This document shows, piece by piece, positions 2,620 to 3,233 of a stretch of 4,411 nucleotides of DNA (the first letter of the stretch is position 1; each line of letters begins with the position of its first letter). The DNA is taken from assembly GCF_003334385.1 (NCBI RefSeq), contig NZ_QOWN01000086.1; one strand, given 5' to 3'. The position numbers and the translations under genes are program-made. Under the pieces are notes generated by a model, which had not been told where the DNA came from, did no database searches, and worked only from the letters and a program-made list of their open reading frames with translations. Origin of the DNA: Escherichia coli (GTDB taxonomy: Bacteria; Pseudomonadota; Gammaproteobacteria; Enterobacterales; Enterobacteriaceae).

Positions 2620-3233
2620 AGATAAATTCATTGTGTGTTATTAATGTATCTTTTATTGTTATTGATTTTTTTTTGCGATTAATAAAATATAATTTAGAAT
2701 ATTGCATGGAAATATAATATTGTGTATTTTGGAGCACTAAAAACACATCCAGCTAATGTTGTGACATATAAAAGTCATTGAGGTGATTCTTATCTCTTGT
2801 TTGGTTGTTTCTAAGCGAGAGTAAATGTCAAAAATATTCTTGTGGGTAATAGGTAAGTAAACATAACCTTTTGATAATTAGGGGGTGACTGCTTTTTTAT
2901 GAAACGTTACTTAGGAAACGCGTTTATCATCGATAGAAAAAAGTATTGTATAATATACATCTTCTCCTTTGCTTAGTCAATCAATGTGGAGTTTCCAGTA
3001 GGGATATGGAGAATACGACATCTTCTATGATTATTTGGTTTCATCATTGATTTTAAAATTAATTTTCATTTCAATGTTTTATTAAGAAAAGAAGAACGAA
3101 CGGGGGGATTATCAACATAATAAATCATTAATAAATATTGGTTATTCCTATATACATACTTGCGATATGCAACTATTGTGCGCCCATATTGTCATGAGTA
3201 AGTTTACTGTCATCTTATATAAACACATCGGCT
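2620..3233 (+). promoter_or_regulatory. ~600 bp very AT-rich non-coding region upstream of the AraC-family regulator; probable promoter/long leader and nucleoid-protein (H-NS-type) silencing region
   Basis: Abrupt drop to visibly very low GC from ~2620; no ORF with a credible start longer than 25 codons; a perfect TATAAT hexamer at 2949-2954 and a T9 run at 2666-2674. No promoter position can be assigned confidently in DNA this AT-rich. Long AT-rich upstream regions are typical of Rns/PerA/AggR-type regulator genes. Confidence 0.35.

Follow-up and report, generated by a model that had tools for sequence, protein, structure and literature searches.

A run of nine T residues in Escherichia coli, which lies at exactly 2666-2674 on the plus strand of a 4,411-nt stretch of DNA (contig NZ_QOWN01000086.1; hereafter, the window) and is called T9 below, is probably an incidental feature of AT-rich, acquired DNA. 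It would undergo occasional slippage, would be inherited in stable lineages with either eight or nine T's, and would have no role in switching. The run is found in the region upstream of a gene for an AraC-family regulator, and the category that it fits is that of an ordinary homopolymer hot spot for insertions and deletions (indels). The first-pass annotation had placed it about 560 bp upstream of the regulator, and reading of the sequence confirms this position: the regulator ATG at 3234 is 559 nt 3′ of T9, while the GTG start used by NCBI, at 3249, is 574 nt 3′ of it. It had also suggested, as a weak idea, that the run might give variable expression if it were within or next to a promoter element. 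The sequences compared do not favour variable expression by way of a promoter, and a promoter-tuning role appears unlikely; that idea was rightly graded as weak. In effect, a role in expression is disfavoured because of the 560-bp distance to the gene, the chance-level quality of the promoter matches, the range of only 1 nt in tract length and the fixation of this length within lineages.

The evidence that carries this reading comes from related isolates. Loci were gathered by exact look-ups of the protein variants of the regulator and of a neighbouring open reading frame (ORF) of 79 amino acids, together with a scan of metagenome DNA for a sequence pattern with a variable gap. The look-ups took in 24 blocks each, the collection blocks that hold the regulator being 279 for variant P0001 and 179 for variant P0008. 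The pattern scan returned two contigs that were already in the set and one unrelated match from soil (L020). After the removal of duplicate records, 33 distinct related E. coli contigs were left, of which 26 carry T9 and seven carry T8; neither T7 nor T10 was observed in any of the 33. The set is nearly clonal, as over 2.1 kb it contains 13 sites with single-nucleotide polymorphisms (SNPs), a few single-base indels in homopolymers, and one deletion of 45 bp.

The T8 contigs belong to different backgrounds. In the first, shared by L024, L025, L031, and L032, the haplotype is the common type of L008, L011, and L014 (H3) with the addition of 4042 T>C, which changes an Ile to Thr near the C-terminus of the regulator. 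In the second, represented by L033 and L034, the haplotype is that of the window plus 2697 G>A, 3144 A>G, and 3207 C>A. The remaining case, L030, is also one base short in two other homopolymers, A6 at 2167 and T4 at 2651; because of these further deletions on the same contig, its T8 is discounted as probably an error of the reads or the assembly. The samples with T8 include SRR13401003, SRR28740474, and ERR10113974, and the doubtful T8 is that of ERR2235306. The first two backgrounds differ from each other at 2752 and 3314 and are linked only via haplotypes that carry T9; therefore, parsimony requires at least two independent contractions from nine to eight. Altogether, two to three length events are counted, all of them contractions. 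Moreover, the tract is the sole homoplasic site among the 18 variable sites in the 2.1 kb and is therefore a real mutational hot spot. The first-pass annotation had called the run slippage-prone and had proposed a comparison of its length across isolates: the length is not invariant, and a T8/T9 polymorphism on at least two SNP backgrounds, at the only homoplasic site, supports the claim. Shorter runs in the contig set (T6 and A6) vary only as singletons.

The tempo of these changes seems to be slow. All contigs of a given SNP haplotype agree in tract length, even where their samples come from different submitters, and the lengths span only 1 nt. There is no sign of fast switching, and the pattern fits rare mutation. 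In E. coli, the substitution rate is about 2e-10 per bp per generation. As a crude calculation that assumes neutrality, 13 SNPs in 2.1 kb would correspond to a total tree length of about 3e7 generations, and two or three tract events to about 1e-7 per generation, also crudely and under the same assumption. Contingency loci typically change at 1e-2 to 1e-5 per generation, and the rough estimate for the tract is far below these values. The wide variation in length, with gains as well as losses, that is expected of such loci was not found, and the tract is no longer than base composition predicts. Two other tracts in this population serve as yardsticks. A T12 tract located 5′ of a linked dispersin-family gene is spanned by nine distinct contigs, eight with T12 and one with T11 (L040; the dispersin gene was surveyed in L001 and L040-L048 as well), and a G-run situated at a junction with an IS3-family insertion sequence (IS), about 30 bp upstream of the dispersin promoter, is G10 in three, G11 in four, and G12 in one of the eight distinct contigs that reach it. 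As for other length differences in the set, the T6 run at 2893-2898 is T5 in L015, a contig in which a G at 2286 is missing as well, and the cause is either ordinary variation of homopolymers or an error of assembly.

The length of T9 is not statistically unusual for the base composition of the island of 30% GC (G+C content) in which it lies. No other homopolymer in the window is as long as T9, the next being five A7 runs and one T7. Nevertheless, when the whole window was shuffled 200 times with its dinucleotides preserved, 33 of the shuffles had a 9-mer run of T or A on either strand. When the 1471-bp AT-rich island was simulated (36% A and 35% T), a run of nine or longer was present in 15% of mononucleotide shuffles and in 31% of first-order Markov simulations, and the 629-bp upstream region alone gave a run of nine or more in 8% of simulations. 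The immediate flanks of the run read ...TTATTGA TTTTTTTTT GCGATTAAT..., or, at greater length, ...CTTTTATTGTTATTGA-TTTTTTTTT-GCGATTAATAAAATATAATTTAGAAT...

On this basis, the origin and behaviour of the tract may be outlined as follows. AT-rich, horizontally acquired intergenic DNA would yield runs of nine by chance. Replication slippage at such a run would then produce T9, which is ancestral by parsimony, or T8, which is derived at least two times, and each length would subsequently be inherited stably. At most, the tract might add to the A/T-tract character, that is, the curvature and the affinity for H-NS, expected upstream of Rns/AggR-type regulators. Of this outline, the neutrality of the tract, the role of slippage, and a part for H-NS, if any, are what we infer. 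Indel rates in E. coli are known to rise exponentially with homopolymer length (PMC8510543). The tract resembles the ordinary hot spots described there, as changes of 1 nt recur on different backgrounds, and no difference from them was found; this is the category that the data fit.

Other functions that a homopolymer may serve were considered and rejected. A coding homopolymer acting as a frameshift switch is one of these, since all six frames of 2560-3000 are filled with stop codons whether the tract is T8, T9, or T10. A minus-strand ORF of 63 amino acids reads the run as KKK and continues into the IS remnant that borders the island. An intrinsic terminator was also rejected, as a scan of 2300-3400 found none and no G+C-rich hairpin precedes the T-run. 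The predicted RNA fold of 2600-2680 (-7.8 kcal/mol, z = +0.99) is no better than that of shuffled sequences, and every hairpin within it is either rich in A/U or stops 30 nt short of the run. In addition, a search of the upstream region against Rfam gave no family match at E ≤ 1. With respect to conservation, the 650-bp upstream region had no match in PLSDB by blastn in distant mode. The upstream region of P0003, a paralogue that is 47% identical to the regulator, contains a T7 at -558; the two upstream regions do not align, their identity being at the level of random AT-rich DNA, and the T7 is thus a coincidence. Since there is neither a homologue in PLSDB nor an alignment with the upstream region of P0003, there is no conservation signal.

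Sequences that resemble promoters are found near the tract. Between 2300 and 3400, four sigma-70-like consensus matches were detected, compared with 5.7 +/- 1.8 in shuffles; thus, there is no enrichment. Upstream of the regulator, the sole match on the plus strand (2673-2700) is made up of TTGCGA (2673-2678), 16 nt, and TAGAAT (2695-2700), with 9/12 positions in agreement, which is the level of chance. Because the run is 5′ of the -35-like TTGCGA, in the territory of UP elements, a change in its length leaves the spacing between the -35 and the -10 unaltered, and would alter only the phase of any sequence further 5′ of TTGCGA-16-TAGAAT. By eye, a second plus-strand pair (2662-2693) can be seen, in which the tract separates TTGATT (2662-2667) from a TATAAT (2688-2693) that fits the consensus perfectly. 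These hexamers are 20 nt apart when the run is T9 and 19 nt apart when it is T8. Neither distance is within the working range of 16-18 nt, and the consensus scan did not list the pair because of this spacing. A transcript from either plus-strand pair would have a leader of about 527-540 nt. Some of the contigs carry substitutions here: A2684G in L001, A2696G in L016, which turns TAGAAT into TGGAAT, and G2697A in L033 and L034, which turns it into TAAAAT. The gene of L016 is otherwise intact, which argues against TAGAAT being essential, if it is a promoter element at all. A further difference upstream of the gene was observed in L007, a metagenome contig that lacks 45 bp (window 3160-3204), 30-74 nt before the ATG, with the coding sequence unchanged; this deletion falls where a proximal promoter or 5′ untranslated region would be expected.

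Further upstream, ATTAATGTATC (2640-2650, plus strand) matches the AggR/Rns consensus WWWWWWWTATC and is nearly identical to ATTAATTTATC, which is part of the dispersin promoter. It is a reasonable candidate for binding of the regulator to its own upstream region and, therefore, would be a candidate autoregulatory site. Among members of the family, Rns/CfaD (PMC5554520) and AggR (PMC6392122) are known to autoactivate. AggR-type promoters consist of WWWWWWWTATC, 21-23 bp, and a -10 hexamer (Yasir et al. 2019, PMC6392122), and sites of the AggR regulon are located 24-314 bp from start codons, this distance being 73 bp for aggR itself (PMC6392122). The regulator is kin to Rns and CsvR, and ATTAATGTATC precedes the tract as such a site would; unlike in AggR/Rns promoters, there is no -10 hexamer 21-23 bp after its TATC, the nearest good ones being at 37 and 44 bp. 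A composition estimate for ATTAATnTATC in the AT-rich upstream region is about 0.014. The tract itself was also considered as an AggR/Rns site and was rejected, as it is without TATC: GCGA follows on the plus strand and TCAA on the minus strand (A9-TC, AATC).

The dispersin promoter (L002 18828-18945) does present the full arrangement, with ATTAATTTATC, a 21-bp spacer (TAATGA-T12-GTA), TATAGT, and about 47 nt to the ATG, and its predicted architecture is of the AggR type. This T12 would be a better candidate for phase variation than T9, because there the tract would set the distance from the activator site to the -10.

Several observations weigh against the view of T9 as an incidental run. Both well-supported changes in length are contractions. 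In the 20.8 kb of L002, ATTAATnTATC occurs only twice, namely at the position equivalent to 2640-2650 and in the dispersin promoter, and it was recovered in one of 200 shuffles of the window; the copy at ATTAATGTATC is 15 bp upstream of T9. The -35-like hexamer of the only plus-strand match, TTGCGA, opens with the last two T's of the tract. Finally, three of the 13 SNPs (2684, 2696, and 2697) are within the 14 bp that follow the tract, with a scan-statistic P of 0.03-0.06 that is post hoc.

Four alternatives give the tract some function, present or past. The one that survives best, which is nonetheless unlikely and is compatible with an incidental run, is that the tract and the adjacent CGATTAAT contribute to silencing of the regulator island, as parts of a region that is curved or nucleates H-NS; tract length would then matter only slightly. 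CGATTAAT, a putative H-NS site, is close to tCGATAAATT, which we take to be the high-affinity motif of H-NS. GCGATTAAT is directly 3′ of the tract, the whole island has 26-33% GC, and the promoter regions of this family of regulators are AT-rich, curved, and silenced by H-NS (PMC5554520). By contrast, nothing in this explanation is specific to the tract, as the entire 1.47 kb is equally AT-rich, and the neighbouring A/T tracts are without helical phasing.

A second alternative, which we regard as quite unlikely, is that the tract tunes a distal promoter of the regulator located just 3′ of it (TTGCGA-16-TAGAAT, or TATAAT at 2688), in the manner of a rheostat. The T-run beside the -35 would be a UP-like element that sets the structure and separates the core promoter from ATTAATGTATC, which is centred near -62 and to which the regulator itself would bind; for each base gained or lost, the upstream site would turn by about 34 degrees with respect to the core promoter, and graded autoactivation would result, as with sabA of Helicobacter pylori. 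Some features agree with this. The -35-like hexamer begins in the last two T's of the tract, the motif found at 2640-2650 is also found 21 bp before the -10 in the linked AggR-type dispersin promoter, the tract varies in length and has changed at least two times independently, and the SNPs 2696 and 2697 are inside the -10-like hexamer. Autoactivation by Rns/CfaD (PMC5554520) and AggR (PMC6392122) and the case of sabA (PMC4081817) are precedents. In sabA, as here, poly-T is directly 5′ of a -35 (or -35-like) hexamer with A/T-rich DNA further up, and length changes by slipped-strand mispairing, as would also be the case for T9. Nevertheless, sabA has a mapped promoter and start beside the gene, its tract goes from T5 to T28 between strains and varies within hosts, and output was measured for each length (Aberg et al. 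2014, PMC4081817). T9, on the other hand, adjoins a consensus match of 9/12 that is no commoner than in shuffles and is 530 bp from the gene, and only T8 and T9 exist, each of them fixed in its lineages. In addition, the host here is E. coli, which is taken to be proficient in mismatch repair. The promoter would need a leader of about 527 nt that is full of stop codons, compared with site distances of 24-314 bp in the AggR regulon (73 bp in aggR), and the 37 or 44 bp from site to -10 differ from the 21-23 bp of AggR-type promoters. Furthermore, the change from TAGAAT to TGGAAT in L016 would kill the -10 of a gene that is otherwise intact.

A related reading would make the T-run a length-sensitive spacer between ATTAATGTATC and the core of a distal, autoregulated promoter, so that T8 and T9 lineages would differ in the level of the regulon. 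We consider this improbable, and the same judgement includes the idea that the sister T12, in the spacer of the dispersin promoter, does the same job.

A third alternative is a classical ON/OFF switch, in which the tract, being between TTGATT (2662-2667) and TATAAT (2688-2693), would turn the promoter on by shortening the spacer toward 17 nt. Phase-variable promoters with a homopolymer between the -35 and the -10 include those of opc, porA, and fetA in Neisseria and of fim in Bordetella. T9 is like them in that both hexamers, a -35-like TTGATT and a perfect TATAAT, are present with the tract between them, and the changes observed, from nine to eight, are all contractions. Unlike in these promoters, the spacer of 20 nt (T9) or 19 nt (T8) is outside 16-18 nt, so that both alleles would be off. 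The T6-T7 that would be required for a spacer of 16-18 nt was seen in none of the 33 contigs, and such hexamers are abundant in DNA of 30% GC. Hence, a switch of this kind is very improbable.

The last alternative arises from the opposite strand. The best promoter-like match of the region, TTGACT-17-TATATT (10/12, minus strand, 2952-2980), points leftwards, toward the tract and the IS remnant. Just downstream of it, a minus-strand site, TTTTTTCTATC, was observed at 2942-2932, with a -10-like hexamer 22 bp on. Together, the promoter match and the site may be what is left of a divergent promoter, the insertion of an IS3 element having removed its gene. That the run is a relic of this gene, an A9 in the leader or at the start of, for instance, a fimbrial subunit that was cut away, is barely credible: the 10/12 match from 2980 to 2952 and the W7TATC site 22 bp from its hexamer would suit it, as would the chaperone-usher operon of L002, which is without a major-subunit gene and abuts IS debris, but no ORF or protein similarity is left on the minus strand, and the 63-residue ORF through the tract enters the IS and looks like AT-rich noise.

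As it stands, the finding matters little; it illustrates that one-base polymorphism between lineages will arise at a 9-nt homopolymer in AT-rich DNA without implying regulation. If, instead, the tract acted as a rheostat, carrier strains would differ heritably in the expression of colonisation factors, which would have a bearing on adherence phenotypes. The regulon affected, in E. coli of the human gut, would comprise the regulator, a dispersin-like protein, an Aat-like exporter, and chaperone-usher fimbriae, and this would be a heritable rheostat in an enterobacterium that is proficient in mismatch repair. Of more interest than T9 are the locus itself and the dispersin promoter, which is of the AggR type and has T12 as most of its 21-bp spacer.

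The window is made up of unlike parts: IS debris of 45-58% GC occupies 1-2604, DNA of 26-33% GC extends from 2605 to about 4075, and an IS66 fragment follows. To the left of the island, the debris includes an ORF of 327 amino acids for an IS91-family transposase (804-1787, minus strand). The left edge of the island is the 3′ remnant of an IS3-family element (2348-2604, plus strand), consisting of an rve_3 transposase fragment (2348-2587, with its stop codon at 2585-2587) and a degenerate right end that extends to about 2604. T9 is thus about 62 bp inside the island. In an alignment with an intact IS3-family copy of E. coli MS1718, similarity continues beyond the transposase stop, with a gap of 12 bp, to about 2604, where it ends with ...TGCTGGTGACAGGCCA in the window and ...TACTGGGGGCAGGTCA in MS1718. 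The DNA that was originally further upstream of the island would thus have been replaced by the IS, as far as the alignment indicates. The upstream region itself (2605-3233, 30% GC) is non-coding, with no plus-strand ORF of at least 40 amino acids, no match in Rfam, and no relative by blastn among complete E. coli genomes or in PLSDB. At the right edge of the island there is a C-terminal fragment of the IS66 family (4147-4332, minus strand), and the equivalent gene in related loci carries PF13817.

The only long ORF downstream of T9 is the regulator gene (3234-4067, plus strand), which encodes 277 amino acids with the domains PF12833 (HTH_18) and PF00165 (HTH_AraC). The start codon is ambiguous, as annotation pipelines call either the ATG at 3234 (277 amino acids) or the alternative GTG at 3249 (272 amino acids, NCBI), and a strong Shine-Dalgarno sequence was seen at neither of them. 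In L033 and L034, C3207A creates an in-frame upstream ATG that leads to a call of 286 amino acids. Among solved structures, the best relatives of the product are Rns (E = 4e-29, residues 21-271), CsvR (2e-27), and ToxT (2e-14). Its top match in NCBIfam is HilD, with 107 bits against a cut-off of 354, and it is under every equivalog cut-off. It has the C-terminal double helix-turn-helix domain of AraC and similarity over its full length to Rns, CsvR, and ToxT; it is an Rns/AggR-like member of the AraC family that is the orthologue of no named regulator. The gene is rare: megablast gave zero matches to it in 5,426 complete RefSeq genomes of E. coli and in PLSDB, and blastn did not find the locus in complete genomes of the species. 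The regulator was found on many draft E. coli contigs, among them those of NCTC strains (GCA_900449675.1 and GCA_900447915.1), and on many contigs from human-gut metagenomes.

In the long contigs L001 and L002, the regulator is embedded in IS elements, and positions 1-20834 of L002 form a plasmid-like region, riddled with IS, around it. On one side there is a chaperone-usher fimbrial cluster with a chaperone, an usher, and a FimG-like subunit, where the position of the major-subunit gene is occupied by IS debris. On the other side, about 8 kb away, there are the dispersin-family gene and an FtsX-type (Aat-like) permease. The gene content of this neighbourhood is that of an Rns/AggR-type colonisation regulon, and the locus appears to be an uncharacterised Rns/AggR-like regulon.

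The paralogue P0003, which is present in L035 and L036 (E. coli GCA_904810305.1 and GCA_904810135.1), has as its neighbours a SPATE-type autotransporter (Peptidase_S6) and a YadA-like adhesin. The DNA upstream of P0003 is AT-rich and contains several T7-T8 runs, one of them a T8 that is 39 nt before the start codon.
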